Virus record (IMG/VR): IMGVR_UViG_3300032893_000018
Coordinates: 29,898 to 93,897 of that record
Strand: one strand, 5' to 3'
DNA: 64,000 bases
Source: a virus
The notes beneath the pieces were generated by a model. The model had not been told where the DNA came from and searched no databases. It saw nothing but the letters and a program-made list of their open reading frames with translations. How positions within the stretch are numbered: position 1 is the first letter of the stretch; each line of letters opens with the position of its first letter. This document shows positions 3-24,366 of this stretch, piece by piece. The position numbers and the translations under genes were made by a program.

Positions 3-671
3 GTCGACTCGATCCGGAAGCTCGTGCCCGCTGACATCATGAAGCGCATCCTCGCGGACGGCATCGAGGGCGGCGGAAAGAAGGGGCGCCGCGGCAAGCC
101 CGCCGGAGTCGACGGCATGGGCGGGCGCGCCGCGCAGATCAAGGCCGCGTTGAACGCCGCGTGGATGGATGAGCTTGTGCCGCTGATGGCCGACACCGGT
201 TGCGCGATCCTGATCGTCGCGCGCGAGACGGACGACGATAGCTACGAGGGCGTGAAGGTCGGCGGCGGCAAGGCGCTCGTGTACGAGTCGTCGCTGCGGC
301 TACGCATCGTGCGCCAGCAGCTGTGGGTCGGGCCCGAGGGGAAAAAGAAGTACGTCGGCGAGAAGCACACCGTCGGGATCCACAAGACGAAGGTCGCGGG
401 ACGGATCGAGCCGGTGGTGTACGCGAGCTACTTCACGTCGAACGGCGTGCACGTGCCGGCGGGATTCTGGCCCGAGCGCGACGCGCTCGAGGTCGGGCAG
501 GAGCTCGGCGTGGTCGACCTGAAGGGCAGCTGGTACGGGTTCGACGGCAAGCGGCTCGGCAATGGCGAGGAGGCCGCGGTACAGCGGCTCCTCGACGAGC
601 CGGCGCTCCTCGCCGCCGTGCAGTCGGCGGTGCGTGAAGCAGCACGCCCGGCGGCATCACCGTCGACGTGA
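3..671 (+). CDS. recA: RecA-like recombinase (5' truncated)
   Basis: VDS Walker B at window edge, GGKALVYESSLRL, KTKVA, KGSWYGFDGKRLGNG C-terminal RecA motifs. Confidence 0.85.
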   Translation, partial: VDSIRKLVPADIMKRILADGIEGGGKKGRRGKPAGVDGMGGRAAQIKAALNAAWMDELVPLMADTGCAILIVARETDDDSYEGVKVGGGKALVYESSLRLRIVRQQLWVGPEGKKKYVGEKHTVGIHKTKVAGRIEPVVYASYFTSNGVHVPAGFWPERDALEVGQELGVVDLKGSWYGFDGKRLGNGEEAAVQRLLDEPALLAAVQSAVREAARPAASPST

Positions 672-1384
672 AGATAGTCGTCACGTCGGATCTGCATCTC
701 GACCACCGCACCGGCGGGTTCGAGCGGTTCGGGGAGATCAAGGTCGCACTGGAGCAGACGGTCGAATGCGCACTCGATGTGCACGCCGACGCTTGGGCGT
801 TCCTCGGCGACCTGACCGACCCCGATCTCGATGAGGGGCTCACGCATCGCGCGATCGCGCTCGCGGTGCAAACCGACGGGCGGCTTCGCGAAGAAGGACT
901 CGCGCCGTGGTGGCTCGTCGGGAACCACGACGTGATCGAGGATGGGCGCCTCAGTCACACGCTGCTGGCGCTCGCCGGCGCGGGTGCAAAGGTGTTCGAT
1001 CGCCCCGACTTTTTCCAACGGGACGACGTGGGCGTGATCGCGCTGCCCTACGCTGCCCTCGCGTACCGGTATGACCCGGCGGCCTACGTCCGGTCGGTCA
1101 CGGAGAAGCACGGCGATCTTCGCCAGTGGTTCGTGATGGGGCACATGACTCGCGTCGACGGTGTCGACGATGGGAGCGAGACGGTCGACATGGCGCGCGG
1201 CGGCGACATGCGGTTCCCAATCGAGGAGGCGCAAAAGCTGCCGCGCGCGGTGCTCGTCAATGGACACTACCACCGGCAGCGCATCGCTCGGCACGTCGGC
1301 GACGTGAACATCCCCGGAAGCCTCGCACGATTGACGCACGGCGAGGAACAGAACGAGCCGGGCTTTTTGATCGTGGAGGTGTGA
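668..1384 (+). CDS. SbcD/Mre11-like metallophosphoesterase nuclease
   Basis: SDLH, LGDLTD, GNHD, GH and NGHYH...PGS motifs; next to SbcC-like ATPase. Confidence 0.9.
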   Translation: MKIVVTSDLHLDHRTGGFERFGEIKVALEQTVECALDVHADAWAFLGDLTDPDLDEGLTHRAIALAVQTDGRLREEGLAPWWLVGNHDVIEDGRLSHTLLALAGAGAKVFDRPDFFQRDDVGVIALPYAALAYRYDPAAYVRSVTEKHGDLRQWFVMGHMTRVDGVDDGSETVDMARGGDMRFPIEEAQKLPRAVLVNGHYHRQRIARHVGDVNIPGSLARLTHGEEQNEPGFLIVEV

Positions 1385-1387
1385 CGG

Positions 1388-1792
1388 ATGCGACGGTCGA
1401 AGGTGACGGCGCGAGCGCCGGTGGTAGATGGATCGATCGAGCGGGTGCCAGTGAAGGGCGCGATGCCGCTTGCGACGGTGACGATGGTTGAAGGCAAGGT
1501 GCCGGTGCCTGCGATGCTCGGGATCGTCCGTGTGATTCCCGAGCCGGGCACGACGACGGCGGCGCGAGCTGCGATCTTGAACGCGCTCAAGCAGGCGGGC
1601 GCCGTCCACGTGTGGTTCGCGCCGCCGTCCGCGGGCGCGCGCGTCGTGCTCGACGAGTCGGTCGCGCCGAGCGCTGCCCGCCGGGAAACCGCGCGCGAGG
1701 CAGTCACGGCGATGCTCAAGGAGGCGGCATCGAGGGATCCGGTGCGGCTCGCCGCCGTGCTGGAGAAGGCGCTCGCGAGGGCGGGGCTTTGA
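1388..1792 (+). CDS. Hypothetical protein, possibly a split SbcD C-terminal domain
   Basis: Tightly coupled between sbcD-like and sbcC-like genes. Confidence 0.55.
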   Translation: MRRSKVTARAPVVDGSIERVPVKGAMPLATVTMVEGKVPVPAMLGIVRVIPEPGTTTAARAAILNALKQAGAVHVWFAPPSAGARVVLDESVAPSAARRETAREAVTAMLKEAASRDPVRLAAVLEKALARAGL

Positions 1793-3744
1793 GCGGCGTC
1801 CACTTGGTCGGCCTTCGGCTGACGAACTGGCGGTGCTTCCGTGGTGTGCACGAGCTCGAGCTCGGCCCGGGCGCGTACGCGATCCAGGCGCAGCACGACG
1901 ACGATCGCGACCGATCGAACTGGCTCGGCAAGTCGTCGCTCTTGTGGGCGATCCGGTTCCTGATGACGGGCGACCACCCGGACGCGACTGAGGATGAGTG
2001 GATCGCCCGGGGCGAGACCGTCGGAGGCGTCGACGGGGAGTTCTCCGACGGGACGTTCGTCAGCCGTGAGCGGAAGCTCGGCGACGCCACGCGGCTCCTC
2101 GTGACGCGCCCGATCGACGGTGGCGAGCGACGGCTCGACGGCGACGCGGCGCAGGCGGAGCTCGACGCCTGGCGGTGCATGAACAAGGACGAGGATCTCA
2201 CCACCTGGTGGATCGAGCAGAAGATGTCCGACCGCTTCGTGCGCGAGGACCCCGCGGTGCGCACGCGGATGATCGCGCGATGGCTGGAGCTCGGGCCGAT
2301 CCAGGCGGCGCACGCGCACGCGGCCGAGTGGCTTCGGGACATCGTCAAGGAGCGCGACGCGATCGCGGCGGTGTGCGAGTCGACGGCGGCGCAGGCGGTC
2401 GAGCTGTGGCAGCAGCTGGACGTCGAACCGAAGGACGTCGGCGGGCTCGTTCTCGGGCGCGACGCGCTTCGCCGCGAGGTGAGCGCGCTTCGGGCCTCGG
2501 CGGAAACGGACGCCGAGACGCGCCGCGTGCTTGCGCGAGTGGAGCAGAACAGGCGCGATGCGGAGGAGCACGCGCGGCTGTCCGACGAGCTGGAGGAGGT
2601 GGACGCGACGATCGCCGAGCTGCCGCCTCCCGTTGACGAGTTCCGAGTCGCGGCGGCGGAGCAGGCGGCGGCCGACGCCGCCGCGGTGCTCGCCGAGCGG
2701 GCCCGCGACGAGCAGAGCAAGCGGACGCTCGCGCGCGGTCGATTCGACGGGAAGTGTCCGGTCGGCGGCATCGCATGCCCCGCGACGGCGCAGCTGAACG
2801 CCGACGTCGAGCGCAATGAGCAGCTGCTGCGCGATGCCGCGGAGGCGAAGGCGTTGGCGAGGAAGGCGGCGGACACCGCGCGCGAATCGGTCGCCGCGCT
2901 CGCCGCTGAGCGGAACCGTCTGTCGCAGCTGGAGTTCCGTCGCGAGAAGGTCGTCGTCGCGCTCGCGCGCGTGGAGGCTGGCGCGAAGGCGCACGCGCGC
3001 GCCGCGCAGGTGACGCGCGAGGATCCGGACGCGGCGACCAAGCTGTGGGAGGCGCAGCAGAAGCTCGACAAGCTCGAGAAGGACGCCGCGATGATCGAGC
3101 GGCTGCAGAAGACGCTGCTCGAGAAGAACGCGCGGCTGCAGGACATGGCGCCCGACGTGCAGGCGCACTGCGAGGCCGTCGCGATCCTCGGGCGCGCGGG
3201 CGTGCAGCGGCGGCTCGCCGAGGGTCTCCTCGCGTCGATTGCGGACGACGTGAACCGGTCGCTCGCCGACTGCGGCGTCGCGCTCCACGTGCGGTTCGAG
3301 TGGGCGCGCGAGACCGACAAGCTCGCCGACGCCTGCGGGCAATGCGGCGCGCCGTTCCCGGCCTCGCGCAAGGTGCGACTGTGTGCGACGTGCGGCGGCG
3401 CGCGCGGGAACAAGCTCGACGAGAAGCTCCGCGTGGTGATGTCGGATCGGTCGGGCGGCGCCGACGACCTCGTCGGGCTCGCGACGTGCCTCGCCGGGGG
3501 CGCGTGGCTCCGCGCGCGCCGCGGGTCGCCGTGGTCGATCGCGTGCATCGACGAGGCGTTCGCGCACGTCGACCTCGCGAACCGGCGCGCGATGGGCCGT
3601 CACCTGCTGTCGCTGCTCTCCGGCGAGCACGGATACGACCAGGCGTTCGTCACGGCGCACGACACGGTGACGCTCGCGTCGCTCCCCCGTCGCATCCTGA
3701 TCGAGGCGGGGGCTTCCGGATCGCGCGTCCGCGTGGTGGGGTAG
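1789..3744 (+). CDS. SbcC/Rad50-like ABC ATPase
   Basis: LTNWRCF, SNWLGKSS Walker A, coiled coil with CPVGGIAC hook, RSGG signature, IDEAFAHVD Walker B, TAHD; TTG start inferred. Confidence 0.88.
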   Translation: MSGVHLVGLRLTNWRCFRGVHELELGPGAYAIQAQHDDDRDRSNWLGKSSLLWAIRFLMTGDHPDATEDEWIARGETVGGVDGEFSDGTFVSRERKLGDATRLLVTRPIDGGERRLDGDAAQAELDAWRCMNKDEDLTTWWIEQKMSDRFVREDPAVRTRMIARWLELGPIQAAHAHAAEWLRDIVKERDAIAAVCESTAAQAVELWQQLDVEPKDVGGLVLGRDALRREVSALRASAETDAETRRVLARVEQNRRDAEEHARLSDELEEVDATIAELPPPVDEFRVAAAEQAAADAAAVLAERARDEQSKRTLARGRFDGKCPVGGIACPATAQLNADVERNEQLLRDAAEAKALARKAADTARESVAALAAERNRLSQLEFRREKVVVALARVEAGAKAHARAAQVTREDPDAATKLWEAQQKLDKLEKDAAMIERLQKTLLEKNARLQDMAPDVQAHCEAVAILGRAGVQRRLAEGLLASIADDVNRSLADCGVALHVRFEWARETDKLADACGQCGAPFPASRKVRLCATCGGARGNKLDEKLRVVMSDRSGGADDLVGLATCLAGGAWLRARRGSPWSIACIDEAFAHVDLANRRAMGRHLLSLLSGEHGYDQAFVTAHDTVTLASLPRRILIEAGASGSRVRVVG

Positions 3745-3748
3745 CACC

Positions 3749-4300
3749 GTGCGCGCGCGGAAGCAGATCGACCCGTCGAAGGTGGTCGTGCTCGGCGTTG
3801 ATCTGTCGCTCGCTGGCACAGGGCTCGTCGCGTTGCCCGCGACGTGGGGAGGCAAGTGGAAGCGCGTCGTAGTGCACACGGTGAAGATCCCGATCCCGAC
3901 GCATGCGACGGAGGGCGAGCGTGTCTCGCGGCTCGGCAAGATCGTGATGGAGGTGCTCGCGTTCGCACGCGACAACCGATGCACGCACGGCGTCGTGTTG
4001 AACTACGCATTCAGCAAGTCGAACAAGGCGCACTGGCTCGGCGAGCTCGGCGGCGTCGTGAAGCTGATGATGCGCGACCACCGGGGACTGCTGCTGCAGC
4101 CGGTCGCCGAGAGCGCCGCTCGTTCGCTGATCGTCGGCAAGCTGCCCCGCGCCGACGTGAAGGTTCTCGTGCGCGCGGAGCTGACCCGGATGGGCATGCC
4201 CGCGGCGTGGTCGCTGGACGAGGGCGACGCGTTCGTCGCGGCGAACTGGGGGCTGTTCGAGTCGGGGGCCCCGGGGGCCCTGGTTCACGCCGCCGCGTGA
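3749..4300 (+). CDS. RuvC-like Holliday junction resolvase
   Basis: VLGVDLSLAGTG, LGELGGVVK, DEGDA motifs. Confidence 0.75.
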   Translation: MRARKQIDPSKVVVLGVDLSLAGTGLVALPATWGGKWKRVVVHTVKIPIPTHATEGERVSRLGKIVMEVLAFARDNRCTHGVVLNYAFSKSNKAHWLGELGGVVKLMMRDHRGLLLQPVAESAARSLIVGKLPRADVKVLVRAELTRMGMPAAWSLDEGDAFVAANWGLFESGAPGALVHAAA

Positions 4301-4332
4301 TTCCCGCGGGTTCGTGGCCCCGGCGGAAAAGG

Positions 4333-4362
4333 TTGCAATGATGGGCCATCATGGCCTATCCT
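4333..4362 (+). promoter_or_regulatory. Sigma70-type promoter of cas12 with palindromic operator
   Basis: TTGCAA-N18-TATCCT; ATGATGG-G-CCATCAT inverted repeat at 4338-4352; GGAG SD before ATG 4408. Confidence 0.55.
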
Positions 4363-4407
4363 TTGGGTGTCCGGTCGACGGTCGGCCGCAAAGGACATGG
4401 AGATCAA

Positions 4408-6063
4408 ATGCTGACTCTTTCTCGACCAGCTCTGATCGAATCAGACGAAGAACGACTGTTGCGTGAGTGTGCCTCGGCGTGCTGGACCTATCACCGATTG
4501 CTCGACTTCGAGGAGCAGCACCAGCGTGTGCTCGACGAGGTCGCGAACACCATCGCCCCCGGCATCGTTAGAGTCGGTCGCATTCTTGCGCGGCTAGCGC
4601 GACGAGCACGACGCGCGGAGCGCACGACGAAGGGGCAATGGGCGCCGAACCCGAGACCGGAACTCGCCGCCGGGTTGCGCCTGCGCTTGGACTCGATGCG
4701 CGCGGCGCGCAACGCAGATCCGCGTTGGGCCGTGGCGCTAGGCTGGGCCGACGAGCAAGTGGGAGAGCCGAAGTCCGTGCGTCGGCGTCGTGCGAAGCCC
4801 GTCGACAAGATCAAGCGTCGCAAGACGGAGACCGATGAAGCTTTTGCCAAGCGCCTCGCGCTGCTCTCGCAAGACGAGAGCGACGAGCACTACGCCAAAA
4901 AGCTCGAGGTCATTCCGCGAGACACTCGTCGCGACGCGTATCGCAAAGAGCTCTACGGGCAGCGCCGCATCTACTGGGGCACGTGGAACGCTCTCGTGCG
5001 GAGCGTCGACCAGGCGCGGAAGGACGTGATCGGCCAGCGTGCGCGAGGGATGCCGGCGGAGATCCGGCGCCCGAAGTTCCGCGACCCGGTTTCTCTTTCG
5101 GCGGACGCTGGCGGTTTCCGAATAGTCGAGCGCGGCTCGCCGTGGTGGACGCTGGAGCTCCGCATCGGGGTGAGCGACGGATGGGTCCGGTTCCGCGCAA
5201 AATGCGGTAACTGGCACGCTGTCCCGGCGGACGCGGCGTTCCGCACGCTCAAGCTCACGCGGCGCAGGGATGGTGAGCGCTGGACGTATTCGGTGAGCCT
5301 AACGATCGACATGGAAAAGTCGACGGCGCAGCGAGCAGAGTCGCGGGTCGTAGCGTTCGACTGGGGCCACCGTGAGCACGGGCATGACCGAGCATCCGAT
5401 GGGATCCGGGTTTTCACATGGCTCGGCGACGATGGCGAGCAAGGCGAAGTTCTGATCCCATCCGAGTGTCGCGCCGCCCTCGACGAGATCGACGGGCTGA
5501 AGAGCCGCCTGGACACGACCTACGATGCGAGACGGACGACGCTCGCTCGCCTTCATCGAAACAGGTACCTGTATCGGCGCGCGCTGATGCGGTCCGGCGT
5601 GCGGACCGCTGAGGAAACGGACTGGCTCCGATGGGAGATGCGGTACGAGCGTCGAATCATGGCGCGGCGAAAGAGGATCGTGAACCTCCGTCGAGAGATC
5701 TACCTCACTGCCGTCCGGGAGCTGCGGGCCCGCTACGCGATCTTCGCGTTCGAGGCCGAGTCGGTACCGCAGATCAAGAAGAAGCAGAAGGACGAGGAGC
5801 GGAAACGTCGGCAGCGGAGCAACCGCGACCTCGCGGCGAGGTACGAGTTCACTTCGATTTGCGAGCGGTCAGGTGCCACGATTATCTCGGTACCCGCTCG
5901 CAAATCGACGAAGGAGTGTCCAGATTGCGGGCAACTCACCGAAAACGGTCCTGAATTGCTCATTGCCTGCCCGGGTTGTGGGCGTATTCGGGACAAGGAC
6001 CGAGGTGCGTCACGTGTCATCCTGGGCCGGGCGAAGGAGGCGCTCGCAAACCGTGCTGCATGA
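4408..6063 (+). CDS. cas12: Compact type V CRISPR effector, Cas12m/V-U1-like (about 551 aa)
   Basis: RuvC-I AFDWG, RuvC-II FAFEAE, CPDCG/CPGCG zinc finger, RuvC-III RDKDRGASRVI; IYWGTWNALV...PAEIRRPKF resembles the V-U1 motif; array starts 31 nt downstream. Confidence 0.85.
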   Translation: MLTLSRPALIESDEERLLRECASACWTYHRLLDFEEQHQRVLDEVANTIAPGIVRVGRILARLARRARRAERTTKGQWAPNPRPELAAGLRLRLDSMRAARNADPRWAVALGWADEQVGEPKSVRRRRAKPVDKIKRRKTETDEAFAKRLALLSQDESDEHYAKKLEVIPRDTRRDAYRKELYGQRRIYWGTWNALVRSVDQARKDVIGQRARGMPAEIRRPKFRDPVSLSADAGGFRIVERGSPWWTLELRIGVSDGWVRFRAKCGNWHAVPADAAFRTLKLTRRRDGERWTYSVSLTIDMEKSTAQRAESRVVAFDWGHREHGHDRASDGIRVFTWLGDDGEQGEVLIPSECRAALDEIDGLKSRLDTTYDARRTTLARLHRNRYLYRRALMRSGVRTAEETDWLRWEMRYERRIMARRKRIVNLRREIYLTAVRELRARYAIFAFEAESVPQIKKKQKDEERKRRQRSNRDLAARYEFTSICERSGATIISVPARKSTKECPDCGQLTENGPELLIACPGCGRIRDKDRGASRVILGRAKEALANRAA

Positions 6064-6094
6064 ATCCGAGATCATTGGGGTCGTCCGGATGTCC

Positions 6095-7179
6095 CCATCA
6101 ACAGCCGCGCGAGGCTTCGAGTATCGCGACAGCATGAACACCGACGGTGTTGCGACGTTCGAGCCGTCCATCAACAGCCGCGCGAGGCTTCGAGTATCGC
6201 GACCCCGAGCACGACGAGAACTCGTCGGGCCATCAACAGCCGCGCGAGGCTTCGAGTATCGCGACGACCGATGACGGCGAGGCAGTTGTCGCGCCCGACG
6301 AACCATCAACAGCCGCGCGAGGCTTCGAGTATCGCGACAGCTCTCCGAGTACCCCACGTCTTGGGACTTCTACGAATCCATCAACAGCCGCGCGAGGCTT
6401 CGAGTATCGCGACGCGTCGCTGCGGCGTCGGCGGGTCACGCGAGCTCCCCCATCAACAGCCGCGCGAGGCTTCGAGTATCGCGACAAGACCCGGCGAACC
6501 CCACCGGCAACGACCTGTCCGCCATCAACAGCCGCGCGAGGCTTCGAGTATCGCGACAAGTAGAACACGATCGCTCCGACCACGGTCACGACGAGCTGCC
6601 ATCAACAGCCGCGCGAGGCTTCGAGTATCGCGACGCATCAAAGAGCGTGAGTGGTACGGGGCCGTCGATCGCGGGCCATCAACAGCCGCGCGAGGCTTCG
6701 AGTATCGCGACATGTTCTCGACCCTTTCGACCTGCTCGCGTCCCGCCCCATGCCGCCATCAACAGCCGCGCGAGGCTTCGAGTATCGCGACGCGGCACGC
6801 CTCCGGGACATCGCGGACCGCGCGCCGCCATCAACAGCCGCGCGAGGCTTCTTCGAGTATCGCGACGAGTCGGCACTGCACCGCGCGCCGCACGAGGTCG
6901 GCCATCAACAGCCGCGAAGGGCTTCGAATACTTCGACCGTCGAGCACGCGGACCGGTCTCCCGCCATCAACAGCCGCGAAGGGCTTCGAATACTTCGACC
7001 ATGGACGATCCGGGAGCGAGCGGCGGCGTACGCACACAAATAACAGCCGCGACGGGCTTCGAATACTTCGACCCCCACACGAGCAGCCATCAATAGCCGC
7101 GAAGGGCTTCGAATACTTCGACCGGTGGTAGCTGCCTGCCGCTTTATCAACAGCTGCTAGGGGCTTCGAGTACCTAGAC
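6095..7179 (+). CRISPR. CRISPR array, 16 repeats of 36 bp and 15 spacers
   Basis: CCATCAACAGCCGCGCGAGGCTTCGAGTATCGCGAC at 6095,6168,6230,6303,6378,6450,6522,6599,6676,6756,6828 (last has +CTT); variant B at 6902,6964,7037,7087; variant C at 7144; spacers 14-44 nt; orientation inferred. Confidence 0.97.
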
Positions 7180-7249
7180 GAGAGGATGTAGATGCGCGGC
7201 AATAACGGGCGATGGCAAAGCGAAAGCTCCGAGGCAAGCTGAAAAAACT

Positions 7250-7582
7250 TTGGACCACGAGCGGCAAGCACATCAATTCCAATTCGACGAGTTCTCCGAA
7301 CGGGAGCGCAAGCTCAACGAGCTGCCCATGCACGTGAAGGTGCTGCAGAAGGCTCTCGGCGAAGCGCATCAGGAGATCGCGAAGCTTCGTCGTGTAGCGG
7401 ACAAGAACAAATTCAGATTCGATGACGACGAGGACAGGGTGGGCGAAGTCGTGAACCAGGTCACGATGTATTTAGCGGCCATTGGTGCTCGCGTGAATTT
7501 GGAGGTCGAATTCGCCTCGGGGCGCAGGAACTCCTTCGAACTGCAAAACAGCCTCCTGCGCGATTTCTTGGGGATTCGATGA
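7250..7582 (+). CDS. Small coiled-coil hypothetical protein lying between CRISPR repeats
   Basis: 110-aa ORF, lower GC; start uncertain (ATG 7212 is out of frame across an A6 run). Confidence 0.5.
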   Translation: MDHERQAHQFQFDEFSERERKLNELPMHVKVLQKALGEAHQEIAKLRRVADKNKFRFDDDEDRVGEVVNQVTMYLAAIGARVNLEVEFASGRRNSFELQNSLLRDFLGIR

Positions 7583-7595
7583 GAGGATGCGCGAA

Positions 7596-7631
7596 CGCCC
7601 AACAGCCGCGAAGGGCTTCGAATACTTTGAC
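7596..7631 (+). CRISPR. Orphan variant-B CRISPR repeat
   Basis: CGCCCAACAGCCGCGAAGGGCTTCGAATACTTTGAC. Confidence 0.85.
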
Positions 7632-8091: not shown

Positions 8092-8793
8092 ATGACGAGG
8101 AAAACGAAGGCGCCACTCCGCGCGCCTGATGCGTTCTTGGAGTATCCCACGGTGCTCCTCTCCCGGTTGAAGGAGGACCCGAAGAACCCGCGCGTGATCA
8201 CGAACGCGGAGCTCGAGATCCTGGAGCGGTCGATGTTCGAGTTCGGGTTCGTCGAACCGGTCGTCGCGAGACCGAGCGATGGCTTGATCATGGGAGGGCA
8301 CCAGCGGCGCCGCGCGTACCTCGCGCTCTATCCGAAGTTGAAGCTGTTGATTCAGTTCACCGTCAGGATCAGCGGCGGCACTATCACCGACGAAGACTTC
8401 GGCGCTCCGCGCGCGCCGGTGATGTGGCGCGAACTCGACGACCAACGCGCGCGCATGTTGAACCTCGCCCTGAATCGGATCGGCGGGACATGGGACGCTG
8501 ATAAGCTGCCGCAATTGATCGAGTCGCTCACGACGCAGATGCCGCTAGAGGCGTTGATGGTCACGGGGTTCACCGCTGCCGAGCTGACCGACTTCGCCGA
8601 TCTCGCGAGTAACCCGGTGGTGACGACCGGTGACGCACCGGTCTCGACGCCGCGGGCGCCGCACTTGTCGTTTGACTTCAGCAGCGAGAAGAAGCGCGAT
8701 GCCGTGAAGCGGTTCATCGCTGCGCGTGTCGAGAAAGGTAAGAAGACCGAGCTCGGTGGTGACCTGCTCGCGAAGCTCCTGGGTGTGCGATGA
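8092..8793 (+). CDS. ParB/Srx N-terminal domain protein
   Basis: PKNPR, FGFVEPVV, IMGGHQR, LNLALNRIGGTWD. Confidence 0.85.
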   Translation: MTRKTKAPLRAPDAFLEYPTVLLSRLKEDPKNPRVITNAELEILERSMFEFGFVEPVVARPSDGLIMGGHQRRRAYLALYPKLKLLIQFTVRISGGTITDEDFGAPRAPVMWRELDDQRARMLNLALNRIGGTWDADKLPQLIESLTTQMPLEALMVTGFTAAELTDFADLASNPVVTTGDAPVSTPRAPHLSFDFSSEKKRDAVKRFIAARVEKGKKTELGGDLLAKLLGVR

Positions 8794-9227
8794 CGCGCCT
8801 CGGTCGCATGTTCAGGAACCTGTTGGAGCGGTTCCTCGGTCGCTACCATGAAGGGCCCGAGCCGCCGCGCCGGCTCGCCGAGGAGGTGCGGATCTTCCGC
8901 CACCTGTTCCCGCTTGCCGACGCCAGGCAGTGGGAGGAGCTCGCCGTCGAGCTCGCGGGGCGGTCGTACCGCGACGGGTTCACGCGCGGATTCGAATGGT
9001 GTGAGCGGAGCTGGGAGGGGCCCGCCGTGGAGCCCGAGCGGCTCGCCGAGGCGCAGGCCCACGACTGGTCGGCGGGCGACGCGAACCCCGTCGTGCGCGA
9101 GCTCCTCCTGCGCGAGCCCGACCCGCTCACGGCGCGACAGGTGCGCGACCTCGAAGAGGCGGCGGCCGACGCGATCGCGCGCGGGATCCCGTTCCGCGCG
9201 GCACCCGGGCCGCGCCAGCGGTGGTAG
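8790..9227 (+). CDS. Hypothetical protein
   Basis: ATGA-coupled ORF. Confidence 0.6.
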   Translation: MTRLGRMFRNLLERFLGRYHEGPEPPRRLAEEVRIFRHLFPLADARQWEELAVELAGRSYRDGFTRGFEWCERSWEGPAVEPERLAEAQAHDWSAGDANPVVRELLLREPDPLTARQVRDLEEAAADAIARGIPFRAAPGPRQRW

Positions 9228-9303
9228 CCGCGGCATGATGGGGGAGGCGGCGTTCGGCGAGAACATTCCCCCCCATGTCCCCGGGCGCCGTCGCTTCTTC
9301 CTC

Positions 9304-9322
9304 ACGGATTACCGTAATCCGT
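9304..9322. promoter_or_regulatory. Palindrome copy 1 (ACGGATTAC-C-GTAATCCGT)
   Basis: Perfect 9-1-9 inverted repeat 8 nt before ATG 9331; also at 24643 and 37592. Confidence 0.75.
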
Positions 9323-9330
9323 CGCAACCC

Positions 9331-9639
9331 ATGAACACCGCATCCCACGCCATCGCTTCCGTCGTCGCGTATTACTCGCAAGCGCTCGCCGAGGCCGAGG
9401 CCGGAAAGCAGCAGCTCGTGTCGATGCTCAAGGCGTCGACCGCGCCCGATCCGACGCGCGACGCGTTAGTCGCGGCGGCGCTCGTCGTCGCCGAGCTGAA
9501 GCTGCCGACCGACGCGATGATCGCCGCGCTCGAAACCCTCCGGAGGGAAGCCCATGCCTACCGAACCGCGCCCGGTCGAGTCGATCCCGCCCGGATGGCG
9601 CGAGTGGAGCCCGCCCGCGACACCCCACGTCAGGGCTAG
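9331..9639 (+). CDS. Hypothetical protein
   Basis: Helical Ala-rich ORF after palindrome. Confidence 0.5.
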   Translation: MNTASHAIASVVAYYSQALAEAEAGKQQLVSMLKASTAPDPTRDALVAAALVVAELKLPTDAMIAALETLRREAHAYRTAPGRVDPARMARVEPARDTPRQG

Positions 9640-9794
9640 CTACGCGCCGCCGTCGCCGATGGGCCGCGTCGTGCGCATGCGATGCGAGCGGTGTGGGGCG
9701 TCGCGGGCGGTCGTGTGCACGTCGAACGCGCCGCGCTCCCACATCGTGAGGTTTGCGATCGAGCACGCCGGTTGCGCGGCGGCATGAACGCGCG

Positions 9795-11693
9795 ATGACC
9801 TACGTCGCGGATGTCCTCGGGGACGGCGGGCTGATGGCGCGAGCGCGCAAGGATTACGCCGCGCGGCCCGGGCAGATCGAGATGGCGGAAGCGGTCGACG
9901 CGGCGATGCGCGATGGCGCGCGCCTGCTCGTCGAGGGACCGACGGGCACGGGCAAGTCGCTCGCGTACCTCGTGCCGGCGCTGTGGCGCGCGGTGCACGA
10001 GGGGAAGAAGTGCGTCGTCGTGACGGGGTCGATCCCGCTCCAGGAGCAGCTCAGCCGGAAGGACCTGCCGATGCTCGCCGCGGTGCTGCCGTGGAAGTTC
10101 GAGCACGCGATGCTGAAGGGGATCTCGAACTACCTGTGTCTGCTCGCGCAGGAGGAGGCCGGCACGGACGCCACCATGCTGCGCCCGCTCGACGCGCTGG
10201 CGTCGTGGGCGTCGTCGACGACGACGGGCGACTTCTCCGAGCTGGAGGAAGAGCTCGAGCCGGAGGTGCGGGGAAAGCTGACGACGACGTCGGAGGATTG
10301 CCTCGGGCAGCGCTGCCCGAGAGCGGCCGAGTGCCACGTGCTCAGGGGCCGCGCGATCGCTGCCCGCGCGCACGTCGTTGTGACGAACTACCATCTGTTC
10401 TTCGCTGACCTCGTGCTTCGCCGCGAGATCGGAAAGGGGATCCTCCCGGACTACTCGAACGTCGTGTTCGACGAGGGGCACCAGGCGGCGGAGATCGCGC
10501 GCGCGTTCTTCGGGTTCAAGCTGACGCCGTTTGCGATCCGGCGATGGTCGAAGCGGCTCATGCCGATCGACTCGCGCTTGCACGATCGACTCGTCGGCGC
10601 GTCCGATCGGTTCTTCGCGGCGCTCGCCGAGTACCGGGCGTCGGACTCGTACAAGGCGCGGCTCCTGGAGCACGACCCGGTCGACTGGGAGCCGCTGTGG
10701 CACGACCTCCGCGCGGCGGAGAAGAAGCTCTCGGACGCCGCGAAGAACGAGCCGGATCCGGCGAGGTCGAAGAAGATCATGTCGGCGGCGGGCTCCGCCG
10801 CGAGCGCCGCTACGATCGTTTCCACGTCGATGCGTCAGACCGAGGACGGCATCGTGTATCACGTCGACGTGGAGGGTCAGGGCCGCGTCGCGCTGTGCGG
10901 GCAGCCGCTCGACGTGTCGCGGAAGCTCCGTGAGTGGATCTTCGCTCATCCCGCGGTCTCGTCCATGGTCGTCGCGTCCGCGACCCTGACGGCGGCCGGT
11001 AGCTTCGAGATGGTCGAGCGCGAGCTCGGCGCCGACGGCGCGCGAAAGCTCGAGGTCGAGTCCCCGTTCGACTGGGCATCGCAGTCGATGGTCGTTGTTC
11101 CTCCCGGCTTGCCGAACCCGACCGAGCGCACGTTCCAGGCGGCCGCGTGCGCCGCGTTCGTCGACGCTGTGCGCGCGGCGCGCGGGCGCACGCTCGGGCT
11201 GTTCACGAGCCGGCGGATGATGGAGGCGGCGGCGGCCGCGCTCCGCGAAGCGCGGCTCGGGTTCGCCGTCATGTGCCAGGGCGAAGCGCCGCGGATGAAA
11301 CTCGTCGAGCGGTTCCGCGCCGACGTGAGCTCCGTCCTGATCGGCACGTCGTCCTTGTGGGAGGGCGTCGACGTGCCGGGCGAGGCGCTCTCGTGCGTCG
11401 TGATCGACCGCCTGCCGTTCGATTCGCCCGACGATCCGATCTCGGACGCGATGAACGAGCGCCGCCGCGACGCGTTCAAGAAGTGGATGCTGCCGCGTGC
11501 GATCCTCGGCTTTCGCCAGGGGACGGGGCGGCTCATCCGGTCGGTGACCGACCGGGGCGTCATCGTGGTGCTCGACCGCCGGCTCGTCGAGAAGCCCTAC
11601 GGCAAGTCGTTCCTGCGCGGGCTGCCGCTCGGCGTGCCGCTCGTTCGGGGAGAGGCCGCGTGGGAGAAGACGATCGCGGACTTCCTCCGATGA
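9795..11693 (+). CDS. DinG/YoaA-family ATP-dependent helicase
   Basis: RPGQ Q-motif, GPTGTGKS, Fe-S cysteines, DEGH, SATL, WEGVDVPG, QGTGRLIR. Confidence 0.95.
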   Translation: MTYVADVLGDGGLMARARKDYAARPGQIEMAEAVDAAMRDGARLLVEGPTGTGKSLAYLVPALWRAVHEGKKCVVVTGSIPLQEQLSRKDLPMLAAVLPWKFEHAMLKGISNYLCLLAQEEAGTDATMLRPLDALASWASSTTTGDFSELEEELEPEVRGKLTTTSEDCLGQRCPRAAECHVLRGRAIAARAHVVVTNYHLFFADLVLRREIGKGILPDYSNVVFDEGHQAAEIARAFFGFKLTPFAIRRWSKRLMPIDSRLHDRLVGASDRFFAALAEYRASDSYKARLLEHDPVDWEPLWHDLRAAEKKLSDAAKNEPDPARSKKIMSAAGSAASAATIVSTSMRQTEDGIVYHVDVEGQGRVALCGQPLDVSRKLREWIFAHPAVSSMVVASATLTAAGSFEMVERELGADGARKLEVESPFDWASQSMVVVPPGLPNPTERTFQAAACAAFVDAVRAARGRTLGLFTSRRMMEAAAAALREARLGFAVMCQGEAPRMKLVERFRADVSSVLIGTSSLWEGVDVPGEALSCVVIDRLPFDSPDDPISDAMNERRRDAFKKWMLPRAILGFRQGTGRLIRSVTDRGVIVVLDRRLVEKPYGKSFLRGLPLGVPLVRGEAAWEKTIADFLR

Positions 11694-22380: not shown

Positions 22381-24366
22381 ATGGCCGCGCGGAAACCGCC
22401 ACCGCACGAGCTCGTCAAGGCGACGCGCGACGACGCGAACGCGTACAAGGGTCGCGCCGATCCCGTGCGCGTGCTCCGGGCGAACCGCGAGCAGGTGATC
22501 CGGCTTGCGCAGGGCAAGGGCGTCGGCCGCATGCGCGAGGTGCTGAAGCGCGCGGAGAAGGCGCTCGCGTCGCGCCTCGGCTCGGGCCCGCTTGCCGGTG
22601 GCAAGGAGGGGTTCTCCGCGGTGCAGCGCCGGCTCGCGCTTGCACAGATCCGCGCGGTGGTCGGCGACGTGGGCGATGGCGTGAAGGACGTCGTCGTCGA
22701 TGGTGCGGGGCCTCTCGCGGAGGACGCGGGCGCGGGCGTGATCGACTACATGCGCGCGTCGGATCGGAAGTTCAGAGGCATCGTCGAGCGGCTACCGATC
22801 CGCGAGGCCGCGGTGCTCGACCGCGCGACGCAGGGCGCCGAGAGCAGCGTGCTTCACCGGCTGATGGGCGACCCGAGGAAGGGTCCGGGGATCCTCAAGC
22901 GGTACGGCGACGGCGTCGTCGAGCGGTTCGAGCAGGCGCTGCAGCAGCGCTTCCTGCAGAAGACATCCTGGGAGGACACGCGCGCCGCGATCGTCGCCGA
23001 GTCGCCGTTCCTGCAGGGCGTGCCCGGGCACTGGGCGGAGCGCATCGTGCGCACCGAGTGCTTAGTCGGCGAGACGCCGGTTTCCGGAGCGGTGGTACGG
23101 GCAGCTTTTCGCCGGTGGTACGAGGGCCCGATCGTCGAGTTCATCACCGACAATGGCCGCCACTTCGCCACAACCCCGAATCACCCAATGCTGACGAGGC
23201 GCGGATGGGTCGCGGCGGCGGCTCTCAACGATGGTGACGATCTGGTCTGCTACCGAGGGCAGCAGCACGCGCGTGCGCCTGGCGACGAACACCGTGAGCA
23301 CGCACCATCCACGGTCGCTCAGATATTCGATTCGCTCACGGAGATACGGGTCCTTCAGCGGCGACGCGGTTCCAAGGACGACTTCCACGGCGACGGGATG
23401 CAGCGCGAGATCGAGATTGCGAGTGCCGACCGGGAGCTGGAGGTCGGGGTGTACGCCCCTCTCTTCAAGCCACTGTGCGATCAGATCCTCACCCCAACCC
23501 ACGCGACGCGCCCTGCTTTTTGCCGCAATTGCGGACGCCTTCTGTCGATCGATGAGCAGGCGTGCTTCTGCAGAGCTCCGAATTTGTACTCCCTCCATAC
23601 GCAAACGGTAGAGCACGCCGCGTTTATCGATGCCGAACTCGCGAGCGAGACTCTTGATGCTCTCGCCGGAGACGTAGCGTTTCGCAATCGCTTGCGTGGG
23701 CACCTCGCCGCGGAACCTGGGTGGCACTCCGCCCCTGGTATGAAACGCAAGGCGAGCCGCCGATCGGGTGCGGGCCTTTCCGATCTTGCGCAGATGCTTG
23801 CGCAGAGTGTGGACGTTGGCTCCGGCTCGGGCGGCCGCGTCGCCGGTGCTCGCGCCTGCGACGTAGAGTTCGATGGCGTGGTCGAGGTTCGAATGCGCGA
23901 GTTTCGAGGACACGTCTACAACCTGACCACGTGGGACGGATACTTCTGCATTGCCGGAGCTTATACCGGAAACACGATGGGTGTGTATAACCGCGCGTCG
24001 CTCGACGCGTCCCGCGAGCTCGATGACCAGCTCGGCGACGTCGTGAAGATCCTGTGCGCCACGTTCGACGGTCGCACGGCGTGGGACAGCTACCTCGTGC
24101 ACGGGCAGATCCGGCGCGTCGACGAGCCGTTCGAATGCCCCGAGTATAACGGGTCGGTGCATCGGTACATGCATCCGCCGAACCGCCCGAACGATCGCGA
24201 GGTGGTCGTGACGCACCGGGTGGCGTGGCCGATCCCCCCGGAGCTCCGCCCGCGGCCGAGGAGCGAGGCGGCGTCGCGGTGGGCCGACGCGGGGTACTCG
24301 CGGGCGATGCCGGCGACGCCGCGACAGACCACCGTGCCGCTTGAGCGGTTCGGCAGGGTCGCTTGA
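22381..24366 (+). CDS. MuF-like minor head protein containing an intein
   Basis: Spliced junction RIVRTE|TMGVYN; FDGRT, VHGQIR, HPPNRPNDR; follows portal. Confidence 0.85.
   Translation: MAARKPPPHELVKATRDDANAYKGRADPVRVLRANREQVIRLAQGKGVGRMREVLKRAEKALASRLGSGPLAGGKEGFSAVQRRLALAQIRAVVGDVGDGVKDVVVDGAGPLAEDAGAGVIDYMRASDRKFRGIVERLPIREAAVLDRATQGAESSVLHRLMGDPRKGPGILKRYGDGVVERFEQALQQRFLQKTSWEDTRAAIVAESPFLQGVPGHWAERIVRTECLVGETPVSGAVVRAAFRRWYEGPIVEFITDNGRHFATTPNHPMLTRRGWVAAAALNDGDDLVCYRGQQHARAPGDEHREHAPSTVAQIFDSLTEIRVLQRRRGSKDDFHGDGMQREIEIASADRELEVGVYAPLFKPLCDQILTPTHATRPAFCRNCGRLLSIDEQACFCRAPNLYSLHTQTVEHAAFIDAELASETLDALAGDVAFRNRLRGHLAAEPGWHSAPGMKRKASRRSGAGLSDLAQMLAQSVDVGSGSGGRVAGARACDVEFDGVVEVRMREFRGHVYNLTTWDGYFCIAGAYTGNTMGVYNRASLDASRELDDQLGDVVKILCATFDGRTAWDSYLVHGQIRRVDEPFECPEYNGSVHRYMHPPNRPNDREVVVTHRVAWPIPPELRPRPRSEAASRWADAGYSRAMPATPRQTTVPLERFGRVA
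23059..23973 (+). mobile_element. Intein (305 aa, residues 227-531)
   Basis: Block A CLVGETPV, block B TTPNHPMLTRRGW, block F HVYNLTT, terminal TGN followed by +1 Thr; lower GC. Confidence 0.92.
23062..23913 (-). CDS. Antisense HTH + DUF559/Vsr-like endonuclease nested in the intein
   Basis: Two HTH-like units (AIELYVAGASTGDAA; AKRYVSGESIKSLAREFGI), then E-x3-QWLEERG...QLPVG...DLAL..VAVEV...RIEYLSDRGWCVL; GTG start inferred. Confidence 0.8.
   Translation of the reverse strand: MSSKLAHSNLDHAIELYVAGASTGDAAARAGANVHTLRKHLRKIGKARTRSAARLAFHTRGGVPPRFRGEVPTQAIAKRYVSGESIKSLAREFGIDKRGVLYRLRMEGVQIRSSAEARLLIDRQKASAIAAKSRARRVGWGEDLIAQWLEERGVHPDLQLPVGTRNLDLALHPVAVEVVLGTASPLKDPYLRERIEYLSDRGWCVLTVFVARRTRVLLPSVADQIVTIVESRRRDPSAPRQHWVIRGCGEVAAIVGDELDDRALVPPAKSCPYHRSGNRRLAD

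Follow-up and report, generated by a model that had tools for sequence, protein, structure and literature searches.

The 64,000-nucleotide stretch of viral DNA analyzed here (the window; bases 29,898–93,897 of IMG/VR record IMGVR_UViG_3300032893_000018, record length 93,897 bp) carries a small effector gene followed directly by a CRISPR array. The effector is a member of the Cas12m family (type V-M, formerly V-U1/C2c4). Within that family it falls in a distinct compact clade, whose members mostly have a D-E-D triad in the RuvC site. Family membership, linkage to the array, the fold of the CRISPR RNA (crRNA), location in a phage and horizontal spread are established directly. The reading that we favor, with moderate confidence, is that of an intact and probably working phage-borne cassette whose effector binds and silences its targets rather than cutting them. 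An earlier note on this DNA had proposed a miniature effector of Cas12m/V-U1 type that a phage encodes together with an array, and the profile, fold and linkage evidence set out below all support that part of the proposal.

The effector is a Cas12m protein

The effector gene and the landmarks of its product, in the residue numbering of the 551-aa protein, are as follows.

4408–6063, + strand: cas12m-like effector gene, 551 aa, with a REC coiled-coil insert, WED, RuvC and a C-terminal zinc-ribbon TNB domain
Residues 125–139: basic stretch RRRRAKPVDKIKRRK
Residues 189–194: YWGTWN
Residues 316–320: AFDWG, containing D318
Residues 448–451: FEAE, containing E449
Residues 504–507 and 521–524: CxxC zinc-ribbon pairs
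Residues 528–531: RDKD, containing D531

The enclosing open reading frame (ORF) spans 4351–6063 and encodes 570 aa, and the ATG at 4408 is almost certainly the real effector start because a GGAG lies 6 nt upstream, the public gene call (P0002) is also 551 aa long and the homologues share an N-terminus, all of them beginning with the same MLTLSRPA. The length of 551 aa given in the earlier note matches both this start and the database gene call, and every motif quoted there (YWGTWN, AFDWG, FEAE, RDKD and the basic insertion) is located in the protein. The frame is unbroken over its 551 codons, with the catalytic and zinc-binding residues all retained.

Pfam and NCBIfam return a generic TnpB/Cas12f TNB zinc ribbon as the sole match to the effector. 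A single-sequence search of the PDB places UnCas12m4a (6e-15) and the Cas12m of entry 23vw (1e-9) ahead of every TnpB. When a family profile built from 30 members is run against the PDB, five distinct solved Cas12m sequences are matched at E-values of 7.6e-36 to 1.8e-20 (UnCas12m4a 7.6e-36, 23vw 3.6e-34, MmCas12m2 2.7e-27, GoCas12m 1.8e-20), with nearly full-length alignments for 23vw and MmCas12m2; the same profile gives 7.6e-16 for mimivirus Fanzor2 and ~1e-7 for TnpB and Cas12f. The AlphaFold2 model of the effector (predicted local distance difference test score, pLDDT, 89.1) has Cas12m/Cas12m2 structures as all of its top four Foldseek matches (E 1.9e-22 to 2e-17), and VIA-align aligns 463–476 residues to Cas12m as against 323–340 to TnpB. 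The ~135 extra residues of the Cas12m alignment are the REC and RuvC helical inserts, the elements that set Cas12m apart from TnpB (PMC11013384); the fold of the effector is that of Cas12m, with both the helical 'roof' insert of REC and the helical insertion of RuvC. No paper using the term 'Cas12m4' was found in the literature.

The basic stretch RRRRAKPVDKIKRRK lies within the REC helical region, which the profile alignment pairs with the REC coiled coil of 23vw. In Cas12m proteins an Arg-rich 'roof' or pocket sits in the REC helical insert (PMC10442227, PMC11013384), and the effector has Arg/Lys-rich stretches at residues 58–72 and 125–139 of its REC helical region, which by their region are candidates for the Cas12m element. 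A long basic insert of 53–57 aligned residues is present in 12 of 30 family representatives, the remainder having 5–35 residues here. The basic insertion appears to be a lineage-specific lengthening of a known Cas12m element.

A compact clade with a mostly D-E-D RuvC site

A word-indexed search lists at least 120 metagenomic clusters of the family at 40–100% identity. In an exhaustive search, 26 representatives of clusters formed at 50% identity are found at E ≤ 1e-30, followed after a gap by proteins of 550–690 aa at ≤1e-18. The best match outside the family, a 605-aa protein (P0146), is a canonical Cas12m (1e-71 to 23vw) and was not found in IMG/VR. A FastTree phylogeny that takes in 28 representatives of the family and 107 of the outgroup recovers the family as monophyletic, at a support of 1.0 and on a long stem. 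The tree is midpoint-rooted and contains neither a TnpB outgroup nor named clade references, and it shows monophyly, not the place of the family among Cas12m clades 1–4; the phylogeny with Cas12m and TnpB that the earlier note had proposed as a check is answered to that extent.

Alignment confirms the D-E-D triad described previously as D318, E449 and D531. Both aspartates are invariant in 30/30 aligned family members, and the middle residue is E in 23/28 members and D in a five-member subclade. The triad is also present in 83/107 outgroup representatives, and Cas12m clades 3 and 4 are D-E-D, NED or DND (PMC10442227). Bigelyte et al. assayed Cas12m proteins with three kinds of triad, D-E-D (four), H-D-D (two) and N-D-D (two), and found that none cut double-stranded DNA (dsDNA); the same proteins bind DNA in a manner dependent on a protospacer-adjacent motif (PAM) and protect E. 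coli from plasmids and phages (PMC11013384). Omura et al. changed the HDD site of MmCas12m2 to DED, and dsDNA cutting was not regained (PMC10442227). Because the tested D-E-D Cas12m proteins are non-cutting and 83/107 outgroup representatives are likewise D-E-D, the triad is the common state of this radiation and not evidence of cleavage. As such, the suggestion that an intact D-E-D site makes this effector possibly cleavage-competent finds little support. Its premise, that characterized Cas12m proteins have a non-canonical RuvC site, holds for some (HDD/NDD) but not for the D-E-D members of clades 3 and 4 (PMC10442227), nor for the four that were assayed (PMC11013384).

The surroundings of the triad set the effector apart. 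Its D-to-E spacing is 131 residues, compared with 168 in MmCas12m2 (H317, D485; PMC10442227) and 175 in GoCas12m (H322, D497; PMC11013384). In the helix that follows the third Asp, the usual motif D-x-N-A-A-x-N-I is replaced by D-R-G-A-S-R-V-I. Across the clade crown this motif is D-x-G-A-[AS]-x-V-I (positions 529–539 of the 551-aa protein), both Asn residues having been lost, and the canonical form is kept solely by the deepest members, P0138 and P0140.

The CRISPR array and a pseudoknotted crRNA handle

Downstream of the effector gene lie the following features.

6095–6866, + strand: class A block, 11 repeats of identical sequence, stem CGCGA/TCGCG, spacers of 26–44 nt
6902–7122, + strand: class B repeats, 4 copies, stem CGAAG/CTTCG, spacers of 26, 37, 14 and 21 nt
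7144–7179, + strand: class C repeat, last of the contiguous array, stem CTAGG/CCTAG, covariance model score 49.8 bits
7180–7595, + strand: insert between repeats 16 and 17, 416 nt, GC 0.56, with a 110-codon ORF at 7250–7582
7596–7631, + strand: solo 17th repeat, class B-like, covariance model score 48.3 bits

The contiguous array (6095–7179) begins 31 nt past the effector stop and consists of 16 repeats of 36 nt each, 11 of class A, four of class B and one of class C, separated by spacers of 37, 26, 37, 39, 36, 36, 41, 41, 44, 36, 35, 26, 37, 14 and 21 nt. The earlier note had correctly counted these 16 repeats and missed the solo copy at 7596–7631. An unfiltered covariance model run over the 93.9-kb genome finds exactly 17 repeat copies, the next non-array match scoring 15 bits. 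The last class A repeat (6828–6866) has a 3-nt loop insertion, one class B repeat (7037–7072) is degenerate in its 5′ part, and in the class C repeat the first-helix pair T12–A19 has become T12–G19. The distal five repeats and the solo copy all belong to non-A classes, and their stem differences are fully compensatory. Published Cas12m proteins work best with guides of ~17 nt, so most of the short distal units could still function. The 110-codon ORF of the insert has no Pfam or PHROG match; processing of the flanking repeats would release the 416-nt insert as a handle-tagged transcript.

A homologous array is present in 11/12 related loci for which downstream sequence is available, the exception (L009) being the most distant, at 36% identity. 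The array starts 31–63 nt past the gene in ten loci and ~2.6 kb downstream in one (L003), and most sister arrays are regular, with identical repeats and spacers of 34–38 nt. Comparison of 42 distinct repeat variants reveals two helices, 9–12/19–22 and 14–18/30–34, that are 98.4% paired. Both sides have changed in 6/9 pairs, with 49 doubly changed cells compared to 11.6 expected; none of 500 shuffles matches the observed values, and slid controls are 30–46% paired. The repeat-derived handle forms a covariation-supported pseudoknot. Counted from the spacer, the helices join −28..−25 with −18..−15 and −23..−19 with −7..−3, the same register as in the PmCas12m crRNA, where −28..−26 pairs with −15..−17 and −23..−20 with −3..−6. 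The 3′ end of the repeat is A(−2) C(−1), as in MmCas12m2 (PMC10442227). One sister array departs from the regular pattern: in the 109-kb phage G001 (locus L004, 7687–10227) it extends over 2.5 kb with at least 36 repeats, nearly every one unlike its neighbors, and with spacers of 16–57 nt and internal gaps of ~500 nt. Both helices are kept there through compensatory changes, and the heterogeneity far exceeds that of an ordinary CRISPR array.

The search for a trans-activating crRNA (tracrRNA) anti-repeat gives a best match of 14/18, equal to that of shuffled sequence, and Cas1, Cas2 and Cas4 were found neither in the whole 93.9-kb record nor in three sister phages. These results agree with the earlier observation of no evident tracrRNA and no cas1, cas2 or cas4, and extend the latter to the full record. 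The lack of cas1, cas2 and cas4 is the norm for type V-M, and the layout of the cassette is standard for that type.

The cassette in unrelated phages

Four complete IMG/VR phages carry the cassette.

G000 (source phage): 93.9 kb, 69% GC
G001: 109 kb, 59% GC
G002: 88 kb, 59% GC
G003: 70.6 kb, 62% GC, with terminal repeats

Their effectors are 60–75% identical. In a tblastn search with 18 window proteins, including the capsid, helicase, SbcC and structural proteins, the effector alone matches G001–G003. The GC content at third codon positions (GC3) of the effector gene is 0.754, as against 0.921 ± 0.039 in 36 other genes (z = −4.25), which bears out the statement that its codon usage differs from that of the rest of the phage. 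Because the effector has this low GC3 and the 416-nt insert is 56% GC, the region 4301–7631 is probably an island acquired horizontally from a lower-GC source. The cassette moves between unrelated phages, and no transposase was found. Other family members have ParB-like, SNF2, DNA polymerase A and methylase genes as neighbors, and some lie in contigs binned into metagenome-assembled genomes, two members (P0020, P0023) in a Polyangiaceae genome, one in an Acidobacteria genome and one in an Actinomycetes genome. No relative of the effector was found in 50,697 GenBank phage records.

Spacers and their targets

A blastn-short search of the 93.9-kb genome with the window spacers gives only chance-level matches of 14–19 nt. 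Among GenBank phages there is no match for the spacers of the window array or of the arrays at L004 and L014, and among plasmids the window spacers give two matches at E = 0.08, which is chance level. Four 20-nt PAM-proximal spacer seeds have no exact match in IMG/VR. The comparison of spacers with viral sequences that had been put forward as a check thus yields no target in GenBank phages or in the four-seed IMG/VR search. Sister arrays have no spacers in common, and their spacer sets therefore turn over.

Among the four phage genomes, a G001 spacer matches G000 at 20/21 positions (E = 4e-4, one query among 118), which is marginal and is not counted as a target; the other cross-targeting matches are low-complexity and are likewise not counted. 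One spacer of 34 nt, from a second G003 array, agrees with the 798-aa primase/helicase gene of the same phage at 31/34 positions (E = 6e-7). The spacer lies at approximately 3553–3586 of L051 (genome 23553–23586) and the match at L050:9760–9793; positions 10, 12 and 14 of the spacer are the mismatched ones. This guide may be directed at the versions of an essential replication gene that rivals carry and leave the phage's own gene alone, a single case that lies outside the window.

Proposed mode of action and alternatives

The steps from crRNA maturation through PAM-dependent recognition to silencing without cutting, and what the targets are, we infer as follows. The effector gene and the array 31 nt past its stop would be transcribed together, and the effector itself would cut the pre-crRNA inside each repeat, keeping ~30 nt of the repeat as a 5′ pseudoknot handle that ends in ..AC and is followed by ~17–20 nt of spacer. 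The crRNA–protein complex would then locate PAM-flanked dsDNA complementary to the spacer. By analogy with all Cas12m proteins tested so far, those with D-E-D among them, the complex would most likely bind its target tightly and so prevent the target's transcription or replication, without making a double-strand cut. The targets would most likely be other mobile elements in competition for the same host, namely superinfecting phages or plasmids. Lacking adaptation genes, the cassette would have to obtain new spacers from host Cas1–Cas2 working in trans or by recombination between arrays. A role in phage–phage or phage–host conflict is plausible.

Several observations weigh against binding and silencing by an active cassette. 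That the two Asp residues are strictly conserved throughout the clade would also be consistent with a working nuclease, and with identity of at most ~30% to tested Cas12m proteins and a long branch, the biochemistry of the clade could differ. For an array in active adaptation, the spread of spacer lengths (14–44 nt) and the mixture of three repeat classes are untidy. Finally, no protospacer was found for the 16 window spacers in the phage itself, in GenBank phages or in plasmids, or for four 20-nt seeds in IMG/VR.

The first of these observations bears most directly on the reading offered in the earlier note, in which the same cassette encodes a true RNA-guided DNA nuclease that cuts both strands or nicks one and so eliminates the DNA of competing phages or of the host. 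We regard this as rather unlikely. The invariance of D318 and D531 in 30/30 members, with a middle residue that is E in 23/28 and otherwise D, is what such an enzyme would show, and Cas12m clades 3 and 4, being DED, have been speculated to hydrolyze DNA (PMC10442227). Yet four D-E-D Cas12m proteins gave no dsDNA cutting (PMC11013384) and restoring DED in MmCas12m2 gave none either (PMC10442227). Compared with the silencers that have been tested, the effector has a shorter RuvC helical insert, so the surroundings of the active site differ from theirs; against cutting, the clade crown lacks the two Asn of the motif that follows the third Asp, and the subclade with D in place of the catalytic E resembles the drift seen in non-cutting V-M proteins. 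Other compact phage type V effectors, CasPhi and CasLambda, are known from solved structures and cut DNA. A more specific form of this idea is somewhat more doubtful still: here the clade would be a cleaving or nicking branch of Cas12m, a self-contained weapon that hops between unrelated soil and wetland phages, obtains its spacers through host adaptation machinery and targets essential replication genes of rival phages, at which the primase/helicase match in G003 hints.

Three further readings are less probable than cutting. A programmable repressor or mRNA-handle reader that regulates the phage's own or host genes, and not competitors, would draw on the ability of Cas12m to act as a natural transcription blocker (PMC10442227, PMC11013384). 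The repeat-flanked 416-nt insert with its ORF and the solo repeat just beyond the array would suit such a device, and the short distal spacers (14–26 nt) beside fold-preserving repeats suggest guides retained for a long time and fixed. However, the window spacers have no above-chance match in the phage's own 93.9 kb, there is one solo repeat in the whole genome, and spacers that differ wholly between sister loci fit arms-race guides better; we consider this regulatory role improbable. That the cassette is a decaying relic, horizontally acquired and no longer working, is very improbable. The foreign-looking island (GC3 z = −4.25), the degenerate trailer repeats, truncated spacers and one repeat with a 3-nt insertion, and the absence of adaptation genes would all be expected of a relic, but the 551-codon frame is whole with its catalytic and zinc-binding residues present, eleven repeats are identical, the divergent repeats retain both helices by compensatory changes, and the family is large and conserved, with at least 120 clusters. 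The outcome that the earlier note had set against its own proposal, a grouping with IS605 TnpB and its omega RNA, is close to refuted and the least probable of all. In that case a transposon-type IS200/IS605 TnpB would use an omega RNA and the repeats would not be its guides, as might be suggested by the generic TnpB/Cas12f TNB domain being all that Pfam and NCBIfam see, and by the presence of the cassette in unrelated phages, which implies that it moves. No Y1 transposase was found in any of the four phage genomes G000–G003, Rfam (omega RNA included) gives no match, and in essentially every sister locus the array follows the gene immediately on its 3′ side. The profile reaches 1e-7 with TnpB as against 1e-36 to 1e-20 with Cas12m, and ~135 more residues align with Cas12m than with TnpB.

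Genome setting and the region upstream of the effector

CheckV estimates the completeness of the IMG/VR virus record at 100%. Its GC content is 69%, and nearly all of its genes lie on the same strand. The window encodes an HK97-type major capsid protein with 30% identity to its counterpart in Streptomyces phage Kromp, and the phage also encodes collagen-like tail fibers and a DNA-metabolism block. The CRISPR cassette is embedded in this DNA-metabolism module (flanks at window positions 668–4300 and 8092–11693), next to the following genes and intergenic region.

668–1384: SbcD-like phosphoesterase, upstream of the cassette
1612–3744: SbcC-like ATPase, upstream of the cassette
3749–4300: RuvC-like resolvase, directly preceding the cassette region
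4301–4407, + strand: intergenic stretch upstream of the effector, with the GGAG ribosome-binding site 6 nt before the ATG
8092–8793: ParB-like gene, downstream of the cassette
9753–11693: DinG-type helicase, downstream of the cassette

Upstream of the effector, a weak promoter-like pair, TTGCAA (4333–4338) and TATCCT (4357–4362), is spaced by 18 nt, and the palindrome TGATGG-G-CCATCA (4339–4351) between the boxes might be an operator. A scan for consensus sigma-70 promoters finds nothing that reaches threshold upstream of the effector, and a promoter at this position can only tentatively be inferred. Elsewhere in the window, a 661-aa ORF at 22381–24366 matches the Pfam intein splicing domain PF14890 below threshold, at E = 2e-6 and with 28.2 bits where 35.8 are required. 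DNA of the phage is present in two wetland DNA metagenomes, in both of which the contigs break off at the array, and no RNA dataset is listed with the locus.

Significance and comparison with known systems

Type V-M is already well characterized, D-E-D members included, and the present case is not a new kind of system but a confirmed member of a distinct compact clade. Cas12m gains from it a well-populated, uncharacterized and unusually small clade, typically of 511–570 aa and mostly D-E-D, in a family already used in base and epigenome editing. Were a member of the clade to cut DNA, it would provide a new miniature editor and V-M would include nucleases; were the clade only to bind DNA, it would supply another compact programmable repressor. 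Interest centers on whether the clade cuts DNA, on its targets and on how the cassette moves between phages, and the case lends support to the idea that CRISPR modules without adaptation genes are routine cargo of phages.

Compared with the TnpB/omega-RNA systems of IS200/IS605 elements (ISDra2 TnpB, PDB 8h1j/8exa), the effector shares the D-E-D triad, and a triplex-pseudoknot guide-RNA core is common to TnpB right-end element RNA (reRNA) and Cas12m crRNA (PMC11013384). Unlike those elements, the cassette has a CRISPR array and neither transposase nor omega RNA (transposon ends were not searched systematically), and the effector has ~150 extra residues in the form of the REC and RuvC inserts. 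Cas12j/CasPhi (PDB 7odf, 7lyt) and Cas12l/CasLambda (8dc2) are also phage-borne single effectors with an array. They resemble the cassette in having no adaptation module and no tracrRNA, and they too are presumed to act against elements that compete with their carrier. They differ from it in that both are proven nucleases.

The closest relatives are the canonical Cas12m proteins, represented by MmCas12m2 (PDB 8hhl/8hio), GoCas12m (8pm4), PmCas12m, MsCas12m, 23vw and UnCas12m4a (23vu), which provide the best profile and Foldseek matches of the effector (reference sources PMC10442227, PMC11013384 and bioRxiv 10.64898/2026.03.26.714355). Common to them and the effector are the bilobed build, the WED domain, the helical REC insert, the RuvC domain with a helical insertion and the zinc-ribbon TNB domain. 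The cassette likewise uses a single crRNA without tracrRNA, lacks adaptation genes and has 36-nt repeats in which the 3′ ~30 nt fold, with matching register, into a pseudoknot and end in AC, and the D-E-D triad recurs in Cas12m clades 3 and 4. The clade differs from tested Cas12m proteins in sequence (identity of at most ~30%) and from canonical members in size, which is typically 511–570 aa compared with ~580–615 aa. Contigs of phages and other mobile elements are where it is found, and not bacterial chromosomes or plasmids. The occurrence of several repeat classes within an array, all keeping the fold, is a trait of the clade that canonical Cas12m does not share.

MvCas12m of myxophage MV-1, a 610-aa D-E-D protein with an 8-spacer array, has been called the first phage Cas12m in a preprint of September 2026, and a role in virus–virus or virus–host conflict has been proposed for it too (bioRxiv 10.64898/2026.09.14.751636). 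As in the window, a D-E-D Cas12m adjoins a CRISPR array in a complete phage genome without cas1, cas2, cas4 or tracrRNA, and spacer targets were likewise not found. The triad of MvCas12m, D305/E463/D555 with spacings of 158 and 92, resembles that of the canonical P0146 (605 aa, D297/E464/D555), in contrast to D318/E449/D531 in the 551-aa window effector. The window array has 16+1 repeats in three classes, compared with 8 spacers and one consensus repeat for MvCas12m. As judged from residue spacings and not from aligned sequence, MvCas12m and the window effector most likely represent different lineages.

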